This document shows, in pieces, positions 2,660 to 51,666 of a stretch of 64,000 nucleotides of DNA. The notes under the pieces are model-generated. The model ran no database searches, was not told the origin of the DNA, and saw only the letters and a program-made list of their open reading frames with translations. The stretch is from a virus. The translations under genes were made by a program, and so were the position numbers. Numbering within the stretch: position 1 is the first letter of the stretch; each line of letters begins with the position of its first letter. The DNA is taken from IMG/VR virus record IMGVR_UViG_3300024265_000031, one strand, 5' to 3'.

Positions 2660-3600
2660 AAATTATTCACACAATCCTTTTCTATTAAAAAATCCAAAGT
2701 CTCTTGTATTGATTCTTTAATAGTATACTTTGGTTTCCATCCTAACGACATTATCTTTGCGATATCTAACCAAATAAATGAATTATCTCCCTTCCAACTT
2801 TCTCCAGTAAAAGAAAATTTAGGAAGTAAATTTAAATGTTCAGCTACAACTCTTGCACAATCTGTTACACTTAAATATTCATCTGTTCCCAAATTAAAAA
2901 TATTTACTTGCTCTTTTGATTTATCAATTGCTACCAACATTCCCTCAATACAGTCTTGCACATTCAAATAACTTTTACAAATGGTTCCATCTCCAATTAT
3001 TTCAAGATTATAAACATCTTCTCTCAATTTATTGTAAAAATCTACAACAAATCCCTTATGGTAATTTTTCCCAAGCAATGACACAAACCTAAATATCCAA
3101 CTTTGAAATCCATATCCTTCACAATATGCTTGTATTAAACTTTCTCCAGCTAATTTAGAAGCTCCATATAATGATGTTTGAATTGGAAATGGCGCATCTT
3201 CTGGAATAGGAACATCTTTTGTTTCTCCATATACAGACCCAGTAGAAGCAAACATAATATTTTTTATTTTATTTTTTCGCATTGCTTCTAAGATTGTAAA
3301 TGTTCCCATTGTATTTTGATTTAAGTCTTTTTCAGGAGTTTTTAATCCATACCTAACATCTGCATTTGCAGCCAAATGAAAAATAAAACCACAATCTTTC
3401 ATTGCCCATGTTAAATTTTCAAAATCTAGTATGTCACCATTTATCATACAAAAATTAGAAAATTTATATGCGTCATATAGATACTTGCTTTTCCCAGTAC
3501 TAAAATTATCATATCCTACAACTTCATATCCATCAGTTAGCAGCCTATCAACTAGGTTGCTTCCAACAAATCCTGCAGCGCCAGTAACAAACGCTTTCAT
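2656..3600 (-). CDS. NAD-dependent nucleotide-sugar epimerase/dehydratase (GalE-like extended SDR)
   Basis: TGAAGFVGS, DNFSTG, HLAAN, STGSVYGE, YGASK. Confidence 0.93.
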   Translation of the reverse strand: MKAFVTGAAGFVGSNLVDRLLTDGYEVVGYDNFSTGKSKYLYDAYKFSNFCMINGDILDFENLTWAMKDCGFIFHLAANADVRYGLKTPEKDLNQNTMGTFTILEAMRKNKIKNIMFASTGSVYGETKDVPIPEDAPFPIQTSLYGASKLAGESLIQAYCEGYGFQSWIFRFVSLLGKNYHKGFVVDFYNKLREDVYNLEIIGDGTICKSYLNVQDCIEGMLVAIDKSKEQVNIFNLGTDEYLSVTDCARVVAEHLNLLPKFSFTGESWKGDNSFIWLDIAKIMSLGWKPKYTIKESIQETLDFLIEKDCVNNL

Positions 3601-4685
3601 TCATTATATCCTTTATCAATAATTTCTTTGCATGTATTTAAAATCTTAGATACATTCTTATCTATAGTTTGATTCATTGCAAATTTATATGGTTCTTCTT
3701 TAGCAAACTTGCGATGATCATCAAGATTTTGTATCATTTCTTCTATTGTTGTGTACCAAATATTTTGTTGATTTTTTATTACTTTCCCATACTGTTTAAT
3801 ATCATCATACGATTTATTATCTGATCCAATCCAAGGAATTTTCAACAACATATATTCAAGTGGCTTAATCCAAGAACGTCTTTGATCATATTGTCCGCAG
3901 AGTGGAGCTAACCCAATGTCAAAATTAGCTAAAACTTTAGGCCATTCAGAAAATTTAACAAATTTATTATAAGTTTTCTTATCGTCTGGCAAATTAATTT
4001 TATCATATACTCTCTTATCGCCAGCAATCATAATCTTTACTTGAGGATAATTTTTACATATTTTTTGTAATGCTTTTATTATTCCACTCTCTTCAAAACT
4101 TTGCACATGAGAAAGACTTCCGCCCCATCCTATGATTATATTATCACCATTGTCTTCTTTTATAACATTTTTATAATGAGTAATATCGACATAGTTAGGA
4201 ACATAATATGCATCTGAGTACCTATCCCAATCTTTCATCAAAACTTTAGACGGTAACATAATTCCCGCCACCATTCTCAGCCCCCACTTAAATTGTGTTA
4301 GGGGCAATGGCTTTATCTCAACATCTACCTCTCCCTCTGGAGTTTTATTTTTTGCAGATCCTAAAACCCAAAATGGATAGGCAATGTTAGTGTCACGCAT
4401 CATATCATATGCATCATCAAAGTTTGCAACTATCATTTTATTACGAACTTTCCAGTACATAATCATTGTCAAATTATCACCAAAGAAATTTCTTTCAATG
4501 ATAATTATGTCTGCCTTGTTACATAGGTTTTGTACTTCTGGTGAATTTGCAGCAAATTGACCAGAATTAATTAAATAAGCCTCATTTTTCTTTGTTTTAT
4601 TAATGGCATCAACTGGCATCACACATCTCCAATTGGTGGTATTATATTCCTTGTAGGAATCCGCATAAACATATACAATTATCAA
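3597..4685 (-). CDS. Glycosyltransferase (GT-B fold, phage type)
   Basis: FDDAY, IGWGGSLSH, DIGLAPL, KPLEY motifs. Confidence 0.8.
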   Translation of the reverse strand: MIIVYVYADSYKEYNTTNWRCVMPVDAINKTKKNEAYLINSGQFAANSPEVQNLCNKADIIIIERNFFGDNLTMIMYWKVRNKMIVANFDDAYDMMRDTNIAYPFWVLGSAKNKTPEGEVDVEIKPLPLTQFKWGLRMVAGIMLPSKVLMKDWDRYSDAYYVPNYVDITHYKNVIKEDNGDNIIIGWGGSLSHVQSFEESGIIKALQKICKNYPQVKIMIAGDKRVYDKINLPDDKKTYNKFVKFSEWPKVLANFDIGLAPLCGQYDQRRSWIKPLEYMLLKIPWIGSDNKSYDDIKQYGKVIKNQQNIWYTTIEEMIQNLDDHRKFAKEEPYKFAMNQTIDKNVSKILNTCKEIIDKGYNE

Positions 4686-4725
4686 TTTTATCTCCTCATT
4701 CCACGCATATTGTTAAAAGCAAAAA

Positions 4726-4799
4726 CGCTGATGACGAGATTTGAACTCGCAAGCCTTCTGTTCGACAGACAGATGTGCTACCATTTACACCACACCAGC
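4726..4799 (-). tRNA. tRNA-Asp(GTC), no encoded CCA
   Basis: Cloverleaf: GCTGGTG/CATCAGC acceptor, TCTGT-CTGTCGA-ACAGA anticodon arm, GTTCAAATC T loop. Confidence 0.93.
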
Positions 4800-4823
4800 A
4801 CAATAAAATTTTCACTAATTCAA

Positions 4824-4852
4824 ATTATACCACACAATTGTTATTTTGTCAA
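4824..4852 (-). promoter_or_regulatory. sigma70-type promoter for tRNA-Asp and the sugar operon
   Basis: TTGACA-17-TATAAT with TG extension. Confidence 0.85.
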
Positions 4853-8256: not shown

Positions 8257-9243
8257 TTATTGGGTATCGTTTTGATCCCAACTACCTTGATACAATTTCA
8301 TATGTTCAACTTCTGTTCTATCCATGATAACACGAAAATACAATTCTGTCAAGCCCTTTCGGTCTGCTGAGAAAGGCAATTCTGAATGCTCGTACCATTT
8401 ATTAAAATTTAAATCAATCTTTTCTGCTTCTTCAACCACTTGTTCGTATGAAAAGGATCCATTTTTTATTCCCAAAAGGAATTCTCTGTTATTTAATGGG
8501 AACCTAATCTCTCCAGTAAGTAAAAGCTGTCTTCCTTCTTCAATCAATCTAAATAAATGATAGGCATGTTTAGTATCATAACCATGTTTATCTTCTAAGA
8601 TTTTTCGTTCTGGGTTACGATTCTTAAACCATTGCATATAATTGTCCCATTTCTTTTTTTCAATCCTATATTCAACTTCTCTATAGATTTCATCCACTAC
8701 TGCTTCATGTAAGTATGCCTTACCAATTTTTGCAATTGCATCAAGACCTTCGCCAGAAATAAGAGGAACATCAGGTAATCCACGTTCAAATCTAGTTGGT
8801 TTTTTTGTTGGTGGATTGATAAACCATTGCCTACGTCTCTTGATCGCATTCAACTGGCTAATAGCATATCCAGAGAAAGTATACCTTGCTTTTTTGCTAA
8901 GAAACAAATGTTTATTCTCAAGTATAAGTTTCCATCTGTTATTCATATGCAAAATGTTTTCATTGGGAATGAAAAGCATTTCAATAATGTTTGGATTGGC
9001 ATCAGCACACAGTTTGAAGAATTTAGCTAATGCATAAATTGTTTTATCTTCATTTTCAAACCCGCTATCTTTTTGATCGAAGTTCATAAAGGGGTCTAAA
9101 AGAATTTCTTCTGGCGGAAGACACACTCCCCTATAATCATAGTCAGAAATCTCTGTATGTGTGCCGTATAATCTGCTGCCTGTCACACACTCAAAAATTT
9201 TAAAATCTAGATGGTCAGGATCAAACTTTATTTTTTGTTTCAT
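8257..9243 (-). CDS. Pol-beta superfamily nucleotidyltransferase (T4 NrdC.11/RlaP-like)
   Basis: GSRLYGT...SDYDYRGV, NPNIIEML, GYDTKHAYHLFRL. Confidence 0.88.
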   Translation of the reverse strand: MKQKIKFDPDHLDFKIFECVTGSRLYGTHTEISDYDYRGVCLPPEEILLDPFMNFDQKDSGFENEDKTIYALAKFFKLCADANPNIIEMLFIPNENILHMNNRWKLILENKHLFLSKKARYTFSGYAISQLNAIKRRRQWFINPPTKKPTRFERGLPDVPLISGEGLDAIAKIGKAYLHEAVVDEIYREVEYRIEKKKWDNYMQWFKNRNPERKILEDKHGYDTKHAYHLFRLIEEGRQLLLTGEIRFPLNNREFLLGIKNGSFSYEQVVEEAEKIDLNFNKWYEHSELPFSADRKGLTELYFRVIMDRTEVEHMKLYQGSWDQNDTQ

Positions 9244-12822: not shown

Positions 12823-12870
12823 TTGTTTTCTCCTATTTTCTTGTATATTTAAATGAAATGAACCTTTTAT

Positions 12871-13068
12871 TTAAAGTATATATACTTGTTGTTTAATTTC
12901 TGTTATGCTTTCTACCCAACCTTCTTCTTTTAATTCTGGAACAACATTTTGAATGTTTAAACAAACGGCTGTAACATCTTGAGCAACTATAGAAACCGTC
13001 TTGTTATTGGCATATTCTTTTTTAAGTCTTATAACTACGTCATATACTTTCATTTTGCATCTCCTCAT
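12871..13068 (-). CDS. Hypothetical protein
   Basis: AGGAG RBS before internal ATG (MKVYDV); promoter TTGATA-17-TATAGT just upstream. Confidence 0.65.
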   Translation of the reverse strand: MRRCKMKVYDVVIRLKKEYANNKTVSIVAQDVTAVCLNIQNVVPELKEEGWVESITEIKQQVYIL

Positions 13069-13219
13069 ATTTTACTATATCATACTTGTTCGCTTTTATC
13101 AAATCACCACCCACTAGCCAATATTATAAGAGCACCTACCAAACAGAATAAACATCCATATTAAAGTACTATCTTCCATTTTATATCTCCTTGTATCTTA
13201 CTAAATTTTGATTTACTCA

Positions 13220-13265
13220 GTTCTCCTTCGGGATTCGAACCCAACACACCAATTCATGAGGAGAA
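13220..13265 (-). ncRNA. tRNA-like mini-RNA lacking an anticodon arm
   Basis: TTCTCCT/AGGAGAA 7-bp acceptor, TTGGG-TTCGAAT-CCCGA T arm, 14-nt D-like linker CATGAATTGGTGTG. Confidence 0.6.
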
Positions 13266-13293
13266 GTATTTCTATTATTGTAACATATTTGAC

Positions 13294-13689
13294 TTATTCT
13301 GTCAAGCCTAAATCTACTTCGACATCTGGAACAATTGTGCTTGGTCTAAAAATAACACGATAACGGTAAATACTTTCCGTTGATGATTCAATCTGTTCCG
13401 CAAAATACGTCACGTTATCTGATAATCCAAGAAAGTGTTTCTTGTATGCTTCAGGGCCAACCTTGCAAGTTACGGTCAATTCACCATCACTGTCATAATT
13501 TCCAAGAGAACACAGTCCTTCAATTTGCAAAATATATTCGCTTGTTATCCCATTGTAAAATACGATACGGCGCGTTACTTCAAAGTTATCAGCCGCAAGC
13601 GACAGATTCCTTGATGCTACGTCTGCTGGTTGAGCGCATCCACTGAAAATCAGAACAATCAACAATACAATCCAAAGTAATCTTTTCAT
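13294..13689 (-). CDS. Lipoprotein of a conserved phage family
   Basis: Signal peptide with lipobox FSGC; ADNFEVTRRIVFYNGIT motif. Confidence 0.8.
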   Translation of the reverse strand: MKRLLWIVLLIVLIFSGCAQPADVASRNLSLAADNFEVTRRIVFYNGITSEYILQIEGLCSLGNYDSDGELTVTCKVGPEAYKKHFLGLSDNVTYFAEQIESSTESIYRYRVIFRPSTIVPDVEVDLGLTE

Positions 13690-13937
13690 TTTTTATCCTT
13701 TTTATTTTTATAGTTTAGTCAATCTAAGTTATATCACATTTCTTATAAGCATCTCCAAATAAAATGTTGTTTTTATTTAAAAGCTGTAATGATCTGTAAA
13801 CCAAGAAATTCCTTTACCGCATATACAAATACCAGTAACCCACCCCCCAACGTGAATTAATCCACTGGCAGGAAAGAACCCTCCGATCAGACAAAATAAA
13901 AGCCCAATAAAAATAAGTATATCTGTTGCTGTTATTT

Positions 13938-31523: not shown

Positions 31524-32903
31524 TTATAACACATCTGTTATGTACTTGTCAAGCCAAACTTGACCTTCTTCTAAATTATTGAACACACCATCTAACTGAG
31601 CCTCAAACGCATCTCTTAAAATATCTCCAAACTTTGGAGATGGATTCATTCCTCTTTCAATTAAATGCCTACCTAATAAAATCTCTTTTGGTGCTTGAGA
31701 TTCTACTTGTAAATCTTTTGCTATTTCACGAATTTGAATTGCTTCTTTAGGCAATCCTCCCTTTAATGGTGGTCTTCCATCATGATCTGCTTCCATAATC
31801 ATAAGCAATTCTGTTATGGTACATGGGTGCAATCTTCTGGCTAATCTTCTAACTGCGCGCTTAGATGGATTCCTGTTATGTACATGTGCCATGTGTTCAC
31901 GTACAAGAGGAATGATTCTCTCAATTAGATATGTTTCTTTCATACCAATTGAGTCAAGAAATTGGCGCGCTGGTTCTTCTCCCATTATATCATGCGCATG
32001 GGAGATTATTTTGCCATCCTTCACCTCTGTTGTAGCTGGTTTCCCCACATCATGCAATAATGCAGCGTACAGAACATTTAATTTGTCTGTTATCACTCTG
32101 GCAGCATCTATTGTATGCAATGTATGATCCCATGCATTCCCTTCTGGATGATGTGCTGGTTCTTGTGGTGTGCTTCTGAGCGCATCCAAGACAGGAAATT
32201 TAGATATCCAACCTGTTTGGACAAGAACATCAAGTCCAAGCGAAATATACTTTCCCTTCTGCAACATCTTATTAAATTCAATAAGAATTCTTTCTTTGGC
32301 CAACGAATCAAATTCTGTTATCATAAATTTACTAAGATTAATTGTCTCTGTAGCCACAACAAAACTAAATCTCGCGGCAAATTGCATTATACGCAAGACC
32401 CTTAATGGATCCTCCATAAATGCTTTGCTTGTATGTCTTATTATCTTGTTATGTATGTCTTCAATTCCACCATAGAAGTCAATAACTTCTTGCAAGAATG
32501 GATCATAAAACATGCTATTACAAGTGATATCGCGTCTAGACGCGGCTTCTTTCAGTGTTATTGTAGGATCAATTTCTACAATAAAACCTTTATGTCCTTG
32601 CCCTTCCTTATTCTCTGTTCTTGGAAGAGAGAAATCTAATTCATCTCCTCCCTCTTTTCTCATATCAACTTTAAATATTCCAAATGCCATACCTACTGCA
32701 TCAACATTTGAGGTATGTTTGCGAAGAACAAACTCTAATTTCTTTGCTGTTATATTGAAACACTCAACGTCTACATCTTTAGAATTGATTCCCATTATTA
32801 AATCCCTAACCCATCCTCCAATGATATAAGGTTTTCCGCCTGCTTTTTTTATGTCTTTAAGGATTGTAAGAGTTTTGGGATTAATTTTTGACGGTATTCT
32901 CAT
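31524..32903 (-). CDS. cca: Class II CCA-adding tRNA nucleotidyltransferase with HD domain
   Basis: GGWVRD, DVD, RTE+flexible loop, RRDIT, EDPLRVLR, LLHDVGK; start reassigned to ATG 32903 because upstream track codons span the promoter. Confidence 0.92.
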   Translation of the reverse strand: MRIPSKINPKTLTILKDIKKAGGKPYIIGGWVRDLIMGINSKDVDVECFNITAKKLEFVLRKHTSNVDAVGMAFGIFKVDMRKEGGDELDFSLPRTENKEGQGHKGFIVEIDPTITLKEAASRRDITCNSMFYDPFLQEVIDFYGGIEDIHNKIIRHTSKAFMEDPLRVLRIMQFAARFSFVVATETINLSKFMITEFDSLAKERILIEFNKMLQKGKYISLGLDVLVQTGWISKFPVLDALRSTPQEPAHHPEGNAWDHTLHTIDAARVITDKLNVLYAALLHDVGKPATTEVKDGKIISHAHDIMGEEPARQFLDSIGMKETYLIERIIPLVREHMAHVHNRNPSKRAVRRLARRLHPCTITELLMIMEADHDGRPPLKGGLPKEAIQIREIAKDLQVESQAPKEILLGRHLIERGMNPSPKFGDILRDAFEAQLDGVFNNLEEGQVWLDKYITDVL

Positions 32904-32909
32904 TGTGTA

Positions 32910-32938
32910 ATTATATCCTTTTTCAATGTGTTTGTCAA
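32910..32938 (-). promoter_or_regulatory. sigma70-type promoter, probably leaderless
   Basis: TTGACA-17-TATAAT, ATG begins 7 nt after the -10. Confidence 0.8.
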
Positions 32939-32993
32939 GCTCCCATAAGCAGTAGCGAACTGCAATCATCCTCTGTTATGGGATTTAGGATTG

Positions 32994-37250: not shown

Positions 37251-37277
37251 TCTATTATCCTAGTATTTTGTTATCAA

Positions 37278-37348
37278 AGATGATGGTGGGAATTGAACCC
37301 ACATAAACTGTTTTGCAGACAGTTACCTTACCAATTGGATACACCATC
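37278..37348 (-). tRNA. tRNA-Cys(GCA), no encoded CCA
   Basis: GATGGTG/CATCATC acceptor, ACTGT-CTGCAAA-ACAGT, GTGGG-TTCAATT-CCCAC, U73. Confidence 0.92.
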
Positions 37349-37360
37349 TAATGTACCTTA

Positions 37361-37389
37361 ATTATAACATATTGAGACTGTTATGTCAA
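37361..37389 (-). promoter_or_regulatory. sigma70-type promoter for tRNA-Cys
   Basis: TTGACA-17-TATAAT, TG extension. Confidence 0.85.
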
Positions 37390-48939: not shown

Positions 48940-51666
48940 ATTACTACGCCTAAAAAGCTACAACAGTACTACATATTTAAATTTAAATCGAGCAGGCTTA
49001 AAAACAATGATTACAACATAAAGTTAGACATAGGCCAAAGTCGTAAAAATGGTGAATTGATCAGTATGGGGGATTCACAAATGCTGAGAAGTTTGCGGAA
49101 CATAAAAGACCAACAAAATAATCAAGAAGAAATAACCACTCTGTTTACAGAAAAAAATAAAATTAAAAATAGAGTTTCTAGTAAAGAAAATTCCAAAAAA
49201 CTAAAAAGATTGCAAGGTAACATAGACAGAATTCTTTTTGTTCCAGAAATCATTAGTGTGGTTATAGATGATAACCGTCACTATGATAATATAATTAAAA
49301 ATGGACTTTTTATAAACAACAAAAAATTTGTAAGATTATTGTGTGGGGCTGGAAATGCCAGAAGAGACACGGTTATATTTGTAGCAGAAAATTATGAGTT
49401 TGAATTGAAAGAATTATTGAATAATAATAGAAATTCAACTCAATTAGTTCCAGCAAAGTTTAATGCATATTTTGCTTTGTGTGCTTCAGCTACATTACAA
49501 GTAAGCGAACCATATTTTTGTGTGATCCCAGATTGTGTAATTCCTAAAACGGTTGAAGTTGACTATATCAATGGTGACAACACAGTAATTCAAAAACAAA
49601 TGGAAATTTCATTTAATTTGTTTGATGGGATGGGATTGATTTCTCCAAGGGGGGCTGAAATGTGGGCGGGTGATTTAGGGTTAGATTATATACCTGCTAC
49701 TTTCATAATCCGCAATTCCTTTTTAAAGGGAATGGTCTGCGTAATGGATTTTAATAAATTCTCTGATGAAATTGGAAAGCATTTGATAAAAGATATATGG
49801 GGAAATACTGTAAATACAAGAGACATGGATTTGATTTTAACAGAATCACAATTTAAATTATGGAATGCATATGATTCGTGCGATACATATATACAAGCAT
49901 GTAGACAAAACAATATGACTTGGGGAATTTCCAGATATGCTCCTAAAGAAGAAAGTACATTTGTTTTTAGTAACTATCAGTTTTTGCAAGCCCTTGATTT
50001 AAATGAATCACAAATTGAAAAATTATGTCAAAAAACAATTGATTATTTTGAGGGAGTAATCAATGAAGATATTGCATATACTTTATTATATTTGTTAGGC
50101 AAAAATTCAAGCAAATCTTATGATTCTAATATTATTGATAAAGTGTACGACAATGTAACCAAGGCCATATTGTTGCACAATGACTTGTTAACTGATCCAT
50201 ACATTAAAAATTACATCATTAGATCTTTAAACAAGAAAATTAAAAAATCCTATATTGGTAATCTAATAATGGATGGAAATTATCAAATAATGATACATGA
50301 TCCTTATGCGTTTATGGAACATGCATTTAGTCTATCTGTTAAAGGCTTGTTAGAAAAGAACACTCATTATAGTACTTATTGGAATGAAAGAGATGTTGAT
50401 ATAGTAGTCGCTTGTCGCCCTCCTTTAACTTGGAGATCTGAAGTAAATAAGTTAAACTTGATTTCTGGAGCAAAACAAAAACACTGGTACAAACATATAA
50501 CAGGTGGTATCATTTATAATATCCATGGCCATGACACTATGCTTCATGCAGACAGTGACGTTGATGGTGACATAATAATGACTACAAACAACACTCAAAT
50601 AATTGACGGTTCGTATGGGGGCTTGCCCATTACGTATGAATTAAACAAAATTTCCAAAGAAACAATCATGGAAGAAGAACTATATAAAGTAGATAAAAAG
50701 GCTTTTCACACTAAAATAGGCTTCATTACCAATTGTAGCACCACATTGTATTCTATGTTGCCAGAATATAAAGAAGGTTCATTAGAATACAATACCCTTA
50801 TCAATCGTTTAAAAATTTGTCGTAAAGAACAAGGAAATCAAATAGACAAGTCTAAAGGATTGCAAGTCAAACCCTTTCCCAAACATTGGACAACGTGGCA
50901 AAAAGTACAAGTAGATAAGGAATATTCTAGTAGAGATCTCAAAAAAATAGACCTTGACAATTCTATTATAATAGATAAGCGTCCTTATTTTATGCGTTAT
51001 TTATATAGTGGCTACAACAAGAAATATAAAAAACATTTGCATAATTATGATAATTATTCGATTGCATTCTTTGGCAAAGAGCTTGACCAGTTATTAAAAA
51101 ACCCTGGAACCAAAGAAGAGCATGATACAATTAGCAAGTATTATAGGTTTAGTCCATTGCTGGATTCAAAATGTCTTATGAATAAAGTTTGTCACTATAT
51201 GGAATCGCAAGTTAATTTACTTAAAGAAAAACATCGTCCACATATTACAGAAAAGAACATCATGTTATTGAAAGACCATTCTATTGAAACAGATCCAACA
51301 AAATTGAAAAAATTATATGATTTATATAAAAAATATAAAAATGAAAAACGTAATTTTGCCATGATCTATAATGAAGATGGTACGGCTAAGTATAAAACTA
51401 TTGAACAATTTAATAAGTCTGTTCGTCAAGAAGCCTATAATACAATTAGTTCTAATATAAGCGAATTAGCAAATCTTGCAGTAGCAATTTGCTATGAAGC
51501 TCATGTTGCAGACAATAAATCTTTTGCTTGGAGTGTTTTTTCTGAGGGGATTATTCAAAACATTATGAAAAACAAACAGAAGAATATTGTGGCTCCCTTT
51601 TTGGACAGAAATGGAGATATTGAATATTTGGGCAATATGTATGCATTGAAAAATATTGAGATATAA
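48940..51666 (+). CDS. YonO-like single-subunit two-barrel DNA-dependent RNA polymerase
   Basis: DSDVDGD (DxDGD) catalytic motif, FDGMGLISP, KGM, R.P, GFITN, IDKSK; frame extends upstream of track start to ATT at 48940 behind GGAGG. Confidence 0.88.
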   Translation: MTTPKKLQQYYIFKFKSSRLKNNDYNIKLDIGQSRKNGELISMGDSQMLRSLRNIKDQQNNQEEITTLFTEKNKIKNRVSSKENSKKLKRLQGNIDRILFVPEIISVVIDDNRHYDNIIKNGLFINNKKFVRLLCGAGNARRDTVIFVAENYEFELKELLNNNRNSTQLVPAKFNAYFALCASATLQVSEPYFCVIPDCVIPKTVEVDYINGDNTVIQKQMEISFNLFDGMGLISPRGAEMWAGDLGLDYIPATFIIRNSFLKGMVCVMDFNKFSDEIGKHLIKDIWGNTVNTRDMDLILTESQFKLWNAYDSCDTYIQACRQNNMTWGISRYAPKEESTFVFSNYQFLQALDLNESQIEKLCQKTIDYFEGVINEDIAYTLLYLLGKNSSKSYDSNIIDKVYDNVTKAILLHNDLLTDPYIKNYIIRSLNKKIKKSYIGNLIMDGNYQIMIHDPYAFMEHAFSLSVKGLLEKNTHYSTYWNERDVDIVVACRPPLTWRSEVNKLNLISGAKQKHWYKHITGGIIYNIHGHDTMLHADSDVDGDIIMTTNNTQIIDGSYGGLPITYELNKISKETIMEEELYKVDKKAFHTKIGFITNCSTTLYSMLPEYKEGSLEYNTLINRLKICRKEQGNQIDKSKGLQVKPFPKHWTTWQKVQVDKEYSSRDLKKIDLDNSIIIDKRPYFMRYLYSGYNKKYKKHLHNYDNYSIAFFGKELDQLLKNPGTKEEHDTISKYYRFSPLLDSKCLMNKVCHYMESQVNLLKEKHRPHITEKNIMLLKDHSIETDPTKLKKLYDLYKKYKNEKRNFAMIYNEDGTAKYKTIEQFNKSVRQEAYNTISSNISELANLAVAICYEAHVADNKSFAWSVFSEGIIQNIMKNKQKNIVAPFLDRNGDIEYLGNMYALKNIEI

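Follow-up and report, generated by a model that had tools for sequence, protein, structure and literature searches.

The half of a tRNA that RNase P, RNase Z and CCA-adding enzymes recognise is the stack of acceptor and T arm with its T loop intact. Both RNase P and the CCA enzyme also accept synthetic minihelices of acceptor and T arm and the tRNA-like domain (TLD) of tmRNA as substrates. In plant mitochondria, such processing has a counterpart in the t-elements, which Hanic-Joyce reportedly treated in 1990. T-elements are tRNA-homologous sequences at mRNA boundaries that encode no CCA (PMC1920247, Forner et al. 2007; PMC11658184). Here, we describe a 46-nt tRNA-derived minihelix from a large uncultured phage and compare it to these and further systems.

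Like the t-elements, the minihelix is tRNA-derived, lies at an mRNA boundary and lacks a CCA, and we infer that it would act through the same mechanism. However, t-elements are conserved across angiosperms, have been mapped experimentally and mostly keep a fuller cloverleaf, whereas the minihelix is a phage singleton without an anticodon arm and is known from its sequence alone. With the synthetic minihelices and the TLD, including the tag-less 'TLD-only' phage tmRNAs, it shares a 12-bp coaxial stack, a short analogue of the D loop and the lack of an anticodon arm. Those RNAs have the alanine identity elements G3:U70 and A73, whereas the acceptor pair 3-70 of the minihelix is C3-G70, its discriminator is C73 and no helix takes the place of the anticodon arm. 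RNAs of the mascRNA/MALAT1 type and the tRNA-like RNAs of herpesviruses are non-decoding tRNA-like modules that RNase P and RNase Z excise from a longer transcript and that are then CCA-tailed, as would probably also hold for the minihelix. Unlike the latter, they are eukaryotic, keep a reduced anticodon stem and form conserved Rfam families, whereas the minihelix has no Rfam match. Finally, phage tRNA pseudogenes also derive from tRNA genes, reside among functional phage tRNAs, keep their promoter context and do not decode. In contrast to these, the remaining half of the minihelix is flawless and is preceded by a promoter that ranks among the strongest in the genome, and no intact orthologue was found.

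The window, i.e. the whole stretch of 64,000 nucleotides that was analysed, belongs to an IMG/VR record that spans 88,920 bases and has an estimated completeness of 59%. The genes around the minihelix are on the minus strand, and the locus is organised as follows:

12852-13777, no strand assigned: gene module bracketed by junction palindromes (12852-12871 and 13758-13777)
13294-13689, minus strand: lipoprotein gene of 131 aa (Pfam Phage_VG64, E = 4e-50; lipobox FSGC), upstream of the minihelix
13277-13305, minus strand: sigma-70-type promoter with -35 box TTGACA (13305-13300), a 17-nt spacer with an extended -10 TG, and -10 box TACAAT (13282-13277)
13220-13265, minus strand: tRNA-derived minihelix of 46 nt, as judged from structure, RNAfold and descriptor
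13265-13259, minus strand: acceptor 5' strand of the minihelix
13258-13245, minus strand: linker of 14 nt
13244-13228, minus strand: T arm
13227-13221, minus strand: acceptor 3' strand
13220, minus strand: discriminator C (C73); the minihelix proper, 13265-13221, has 45 nt
13180-13219, minus strand: trailer/leader of 40 nt, starting UGAGUAAAUCAAAAU, with the Shine-Dalgarno sequence AAGGAG (13192-13187)
13114-13179, minus strand: 21-codon ORF (MEDSTLIWMFILFGRCSYNIG*) with a good ribosome-binding site (RBS), read from the sequence and putatively coding

Read 5' to 3' on the minus strand (13265 to 13220), the RNA is UUCUCCU / CAUGAAUUGGUGUG / UUGGG / UUCGAAU / CCCGA / AGGAGAA / C. Its first and last heptamers form an acceptor stem with seven out of seven Watson-Crick pairs. 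The T stem (UUGGG/CCCGA) comprises five pairs, one of them U-G, and includes the equivalent of G53-C61, while the T loop (UUCGAAU) is canonical. The T stem directly adjoins the acceptor 3' strand, which is the arrangement found in every tRNA. RNAfold returned this acceptor/T-arm fold both as the minimum free energy (MFE) and as the centroid structure (-11.9 kcal/mol). Thus, the perfect 7-bp acceptor stem and the canonical T arm reported in a preliminary description of the locus are confirmed.

Positions 8-48 of a tRNA, and with them the D and anticodon arms, are replaced by the 14-nt linker. It contains GG and includes the D-loop-like stretch AAUUGGU (compare AAUUGGUA in tRNA-Cys of the same phage). 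The preliminary description had drawn this linker as a D-like hairpin with a GG-containing loop. The GG linker is indeed present, but the hairpin is weak, as it consists of only three pairs (C-G, A-U and U-G) that occur in the MFE and are absent from the centroid structure. At the core positions, the minihelix has C8 and U14 as compared to the U8 and A14 typical of tRNAs; among 73 unique tRNAs from its own genome and the fetched loci, C8 occurs in none and T14 in six. CCA is not encoded, the 3' end reading ...AGGAGAA-C-UGA. The base at position -1 is a C (13266), leaving the RNA without a G-1:C73 pair.

To judge how readily such a structure arises by chance, we employed a strict descriptor consisting of a 7-bp acceptor stem, a 5-bp T stem, a TTCRANN loop, G53-C61 and a linker of ≤30 nt. 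The minihelix was its single match in the 88.9-kb record, while 300 dinucleotide shuffles gave a mean of 0.03 matches, with any match in 9 of the 300. Widening the linker to ≤60 nt also picked up five genuine tRNAs of the phage. The tRNA-specific geometry of the minihelix is therefore beyond chance. Its fold energy is not significant (z = -0.65 to -0.85, with -1.4 to -3.4 for the real tRNAs of the phage), and the case for the minihelix accordingly rests on geometry and context, not on energy. The energy, with z at about -0.7, is also the one point in favour of reading the hairpin as accidental, as a tRNA-derived att-site fragment or as the lipoprotein gene's intrinsic terminator. We give these readings hardly any credence: the descriptor expectation is 0.03 per genome, no U-run follows the stem (the trailer reads CUGAGUAAAUC), a terminator scan was empty at the site, both acceptor strands are kept, which does not fit an att-type 3' tRNA fragment, and a consensus promoter lies at tRNA-gene distance. 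A 28-aa ORF with a GTG start that runs across the minihelix lacks an RBS and was rejected as coding.

ARAGORN did not call the minihelix as a tRNA in its standard, relaxed, intron or mitochondrial modes, and Rfam returned no match at E-values up to 10. Together with the mere 14 nt between the stems, the missing calls confirm that the anticodon arm is absent altogether, as had been noticed before; the failure of both tools is due only to this missing arm. A canonical tRNA (RF00005) shares the acceptor/T half, while the D and anticodon arms, U8 and A14 are lacking. Likewise, an alanine or tmRNA-like identity was dismissed for want of G3:U70 and A73, and a histidine-like identity since G-1 is missing despite the presence of C73. 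A function as tRNA-Gln was discarded as well, as without an anticodon arm there is no UUG or CUG anticodon.

The minihelix is placed between the stop of the lipoprotein gene (13294) and the next RBS (13192-13187). Its position after a lipoprotein gene, part of the preliminary description, holds, as the upstream ORF is a real Phage_VG64 lipoprotein. The promoter overlaps the last codons of that gene, matches the consensus at 11 of 12 positions in addition to the TG, and is among the best that a promoter scan found in the 9-18 kb region. Its -10 box is separated from the first acceptor base by 11 nt, and the start site is predicted near 13270, 4-6 nt ahead of the minihelix. The module bracketed by the two junction palindromes holds the lipoprotein gene, the cassette with the minihelix and a 65-aa ORF served by a separate promoter (13102-13074), so that the minihelix is internal to it. 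The palindrome itself (RATRAAA-N6-TTTYATY) is found repeatedly at junctions between genes; the window has 52 matches (4875-61797), compared to 2.7 expected. In the 21-codon ORF, the +1 frame runs on as the hydrophobic VGALIILASGW*, with an apparent frameshift near UUUGGUAGG. Judging from this, the ORF may represent a small membrane peptide with a frameshift.

To place the minihelix among the tRNA genes of the phage, we compared the flanks of every tRNA in the record, which contains eight tRNA genes, none of them encoding CCA. These form five real tRNA loci. Four of the five show a TTGACA/TTGATA-17-TAnAAT promoter, a 10-24 nt leader, one or more CCA-less tRNAs, a short trailer and an RBS with an ORF. 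The promoter is found at tRNA-Asn/Gly, tRNA-Asp and tRNA-Cys and, in weaker form, at tRNA-Lys/Arg/Arg; no obvious promoter was found upstream of tRNA-Trp in this comparison. An RBS and ORF follow within 10-40 nt after the tRNA at all five loci. The layout of the minihelix is that of a real tRNA cassette. Its promoter belongs to the same family as those before tRNA-Asn/Gly, tRNA-Asp and tRNA-Cys, and the 11-nt spacing from the -10 box is the same as at tRNA-Cys. The trailers after tRNA-Arg (UGAAUAACAAAAU), tRNA-Cys (UGAUAACAAAAU) and the minihelix (UGAGUAAAUCAAAAU) are also alike and have a UGA-UAA-CAAAAU-like motif in common. The loci to which these observations refer are as follows, in window coordinates:

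4725-4852: locus in the window
13114-13305: locus in the window, containing the minihelix
29416-29700: locus in the window
37277-37389: locus in the window
-16974 to -16786: locus in the record, outside the window

Since the tRNA genes sit in mRNA 5' leaders, tRNA processing and the formation or maturation of mRNA 5' ends appear to be coupled in this phage. A genome-wide scan found ~17 strong minus-strand promoters of this type, the majority of which feed an ORF directly. As most strong promoters thus lead straight into ORFs, a tRNA is an insert in some leaders, and the minihelix occupies the slot of a tRNA.

These observations bear on the suggestion of the preliminary description that the element is an mRNA processing signal. 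Its location between the lipoprotein gene and the next message does fit a separation of the two by RNase P and RNase Z. However, the near-consensus promoter of its own and the tRNA cassette layout identify it as a derivative of a tRNA gene, and not as a purpose-built mRNA 3' signal. In a variant of this suggestion, the minihelix would be a selected, t-element-like module, in which cleavage by RNase P and RNase Z matures the 3' end of the lipoprotein mRNA and defines the 5' end of the downstream message, independently of decoding. We hold this reading to be rather doubtful. The minihelix does lie exactly between the stop codon and the next RBS, the full 12-bp stack with its T loop is a minimal substrate for RNase P, RNase Z and the CCA enzyme, and all tRNAs of the phage directly precede an RBS and ORF. 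The intact stems next to the drifted C8 and U14 would also suit it. Yet most strong promoters feed ORFs without a tRNA-like leader, which indicates that such a module is not generally needed, and the downstream ORF is tiny and possibly broken.

To trace the origin of the minihelix, we searched with a pattern that demanded an exact match to both of its acceptor strands and a T loop of the form GGTTCRANTCC, with a spacing of 16-46 nt. In IMG/VR, five sequences matched. All five are full-length tRNA-Gln(UUG) genes on low-GC phage contigs and derive from two independent lineages. No match was obtained among 185,579 bacterial and archaeal species genomes, with one genome per species. As the pair of strands UUCUCCU/AGGAGAA was found only in tRNA-Gln(UUG) genes, the acceptor stem is that of a phage tRNA-Gln with U1-A72, which is the first acceptor pair of the minihelix and of the annotated tRNA-Gln genes with the same stem. 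The minihelix was thus possibly a Gln-type tRNA, an assignment drawn from the acceptor stem and its occurrence in the two independent lineages. Compared to these tRNA-Gln genes, the minihelix is short of ~25-27 nt, namely the anticodon arm, flanked by the 3' D-stem strand and the greater part of the variable loop, and as read from the sequence the missing part is compatible with one deletion. C8 and U14 indicate that either the tertiary core has drifted or the event was more complex than a single deletion.

The acceptor stem also bears on the idea that the RNA is a translational control hairpin, in which UCUCCU mimics an anti-Shine-Dalgarno sequence and pairs with the internal AGGAGAA or the downstream Shine-Dalgarno sequence, with the likeness to a tRNA being secondary. 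In the MFE structure of a 112-nt transcript model, UCUCCU (13259-13264) indeed pairs with the downstream AGGAGA (Shine-Dalgarno, 13187-13192) and not with the acceptor 3' strand. However, the frequency of this structure in the ensemble is 0.009, its z is +0.36, and the canonical T arm would be left unexplained. The same acceptor stem is found in genuine tRNA-Gln genes, which shows that the sequence was inherited from a tRNA, and we therefore treat the pairing as incidental and the control hairpin as highly improbable.

Based on these data, we lean towards the view that the minihelix is an internally deleted tRNA gene, possibly of the Gln type, that would still be transcribed and processed in a t-element-like manner. 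After one internal deletion of ~25-27 nt in a phage tRNA, possibly tRNA-Gln(UUG), the original promoter-tRNA-ORF cassette would have kept its promoter, the acceptor stem and T arm of the tRNA and a portion of the D loop. Host RNA polymerase would transcribe the locus from ~13270, giving a short mRNA that opens with a leader of 4-6 nt, followed directly by the 46-nt minihelix. Host RNase P would be expected to cut before U13265, thanks to the intact 12-bp acceptor/T-arm stack and the canonical T loop. In Bacillota, CCA-less tRNA precursors are processed by RNase Z, followed by CCA addition. RNase Z would likewise cut after C13220 (C73), as CCA is not encoded, and the freed hairpin would receive its CCA from the host or the phage enzyme. 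This hairpin would not decode, and no aminoacylation is expected, since the identity sets confined to the acceptor are missing (no G3:U70; no G-1 opposite C73). Its remaining effect, if any, would be that of a t-element, which would give read-through transcripts of the lipoprotein gene their 3' end and the message for the small ORF its 5' end.

The drifted C8 and T14 would agree with such a relic, as drift is expected once the tRNA core has been lost, and the possibly frameshifted ORF is compatible with a decaying cassette. That all remaining pairs are intact had been taken to be unlike random decay, which is no argument against a single recent deletion. Against a relic, phage genomes are compact, yet the minihelix has been kept behind one of the strongest promoters. 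Moreover, no ancestral or orthologous full tRNA was found, so that the deletion is a reconstruction on our part. The contrast between the 12 intact stem pairs and seven intact T-loop bases on the one hand and the drifted linker core on the other hints weakly at selection on the minihelix half. If the minihelix is indeed a relic, it provides a tidy example of the decay of a phage tRNA gene. It also illustrates that annotation tools miss tRNA-derived pieces to which RNase P, RNase Z and CCA enzymes may still be drawn.

The processing proposed here has possible partners in the phage itself. The phage CCA enzyme invoked in the preliminary description exists and is a class II CCA-adding enzyme with an HD domain (31524-32969, minus strand). 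In addition, an RNA-repair nucleotidyltransferase of the RlaP family is encoded at 8257-9243 (minus strand). RlaP, the CCA-adding/HD enzyme and at least eight CCA-less tRNAs suggest a phage-borne tRNA maintenance kit. On the plus strand, 49057-51666 encodes a YonO-like single-subunit RNA polymerase of 869 aa with a match to Pfam RdRP (PF05183). Among cultured phages, its nearest relatives occur in Bacillus phage BUCT082 (38%), Clostridium phage c-st, Enterocloster phages and SPbeta, and these relatives of the YonO/RdRP family make a Bacillota host likely. One relative at 41% polymerase identity, in the record of locus L030, has its polymerase gene immediately followed by 20 tRNA genes in an array.

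The strong early-type promoter and the investment of the phage in tRNA maintenance (the CCA/HD enzyme, RlaP and eight or more tRNAs) would also suit a decoy. In this scenario, the minihelix, made early from its strong promoter and CCA-tailed by the phage, would serve as a sponge for factors that bind tRNA acceptor ends, such as toxins that modify or trim the 3' CCA or the tRNA repair and quality control of the host. A decoy for tRNA-cleaving defences had been suggested before and found no support in our analysis. The best-documented tRNA-targeting defences are anticodon nucleases, which an RNA without an anticodon loop cannot bait. Direct evidence for a decoy is lacking, the minihelix is a singleton without homologues, and it is thermodynamically weak at -11.9 kcal/mol. 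We therefore regard a decoy as quite improbable. The broader proposal of a selected and highly expressed phage mini-tRNA also strikes us as unlikely. Such an RNA of 46 nt would be freed by RNase P and RNase Z, receive its CCA from the CCA/HD enzyme of the phage and act either as a counterpart of t-elements that punctuates early transcripts or as an acceptor-end sponge for host factors or defence toxins. If the minihelix is nevertheless kept by selection, it would be a natural acceptor/T-arm minihelix of a phage, and either the equivalent of organellar t-elements or a new decoy for tRNA ends.

We searched for relatives of the minihelix at several levels. When 50,697 phage records were searched with the region by megablast and blastn, the lipoprotein gene alone gave matches, all of them in unrelated phages. 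The regions downstream of 26 lipoprotein loci in IMG/VR were all unrelated and showed no conserved synteny. The neighbouring ORFs of 119 and 130 aa have no relatives in IMG/VR, and the 119-aa ORF matched only itself in a set of 5.8 billion proteins. An exact 24-mer of the T arm and acceptor gave 0 matches in IMG/VR. The sole other copy of the minihelix that was retrieved, from Logan SRR5210996, is 100% identical over 1.2 kb. Homologues showing covariation, which the preliminary description had named as a check on a conserved RNA, were not found: the covariance model R1 scored the minihelix itself at 79 bits and nothing else in its own record, and it had no match in five distantly related viral records, of which three reach a completeness of 90% or more. 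That no conserved copy turned up in the five distant records, in IMG/VR or in the 185,579 cellular genomes also weighs against the selected module at the mRNA boundary discussed above. Three observations point to the deleted tRNA gene: the minihelix is a singleton, the ORF after it may be frameshifted, and most promoters manage without such a leader.

More distant relatives were gathered through a DUF932 protein encoded 2 kb upstream, which yielded 51 loci at 43-52% amino-acid identity. No second minihelix was found in these loci (662 kb). An apparent minihelix in L054 turned out to be the anticodon stem of a normal tRNA-Ile that pairs by accident, and that in L094 is a plain hairpin. The DUF932 relatives carry scattered ordinary full tRNAs in the equivalent early region, and four of them also have the VG64 lipoprotein gene. 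In L095, this gene is followed by a small membrane ORF and then by a full tRNA-Val. This full tRNA a little downstream of the lipoprotein gene would agree with the deleted tRNA gene, as would the scattered tRNAs of the other relatives, but the tRNA-Val is not an orthologue of the minihelix, as the two have no acceptor sequence in common.

Unusual tRNA-like RNAs were also observed next to other VG64 homologues. On the unrelated phage contig L004 (3454-3524, plus strand), a tRNA-like RNA of 71 nt lies ~80 nt downstream of such a gene. Its acceptor stem of 7 bp is perfect and a T arm is present, while the D and anticodon arms are replaced by a 7-nt linker and one 11-bp stem with an 11-nt loop. 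It folds at -33 kcal/mol and received no call from ARAGORN or Rfam. Two further cases lie 3' of a VG64 homologue in L024. The first (3413-3549, plus strand) is a tRNA with an insertion of ~63 nt in the region of the anticodon arm (Rfam tRNA, 36.5 bits), and the second (3724-3797, plus strand) has an 8-nt anticodon loop and was called by ARAGORN as 'tRNA-???' with the four-base anticodon aaca.
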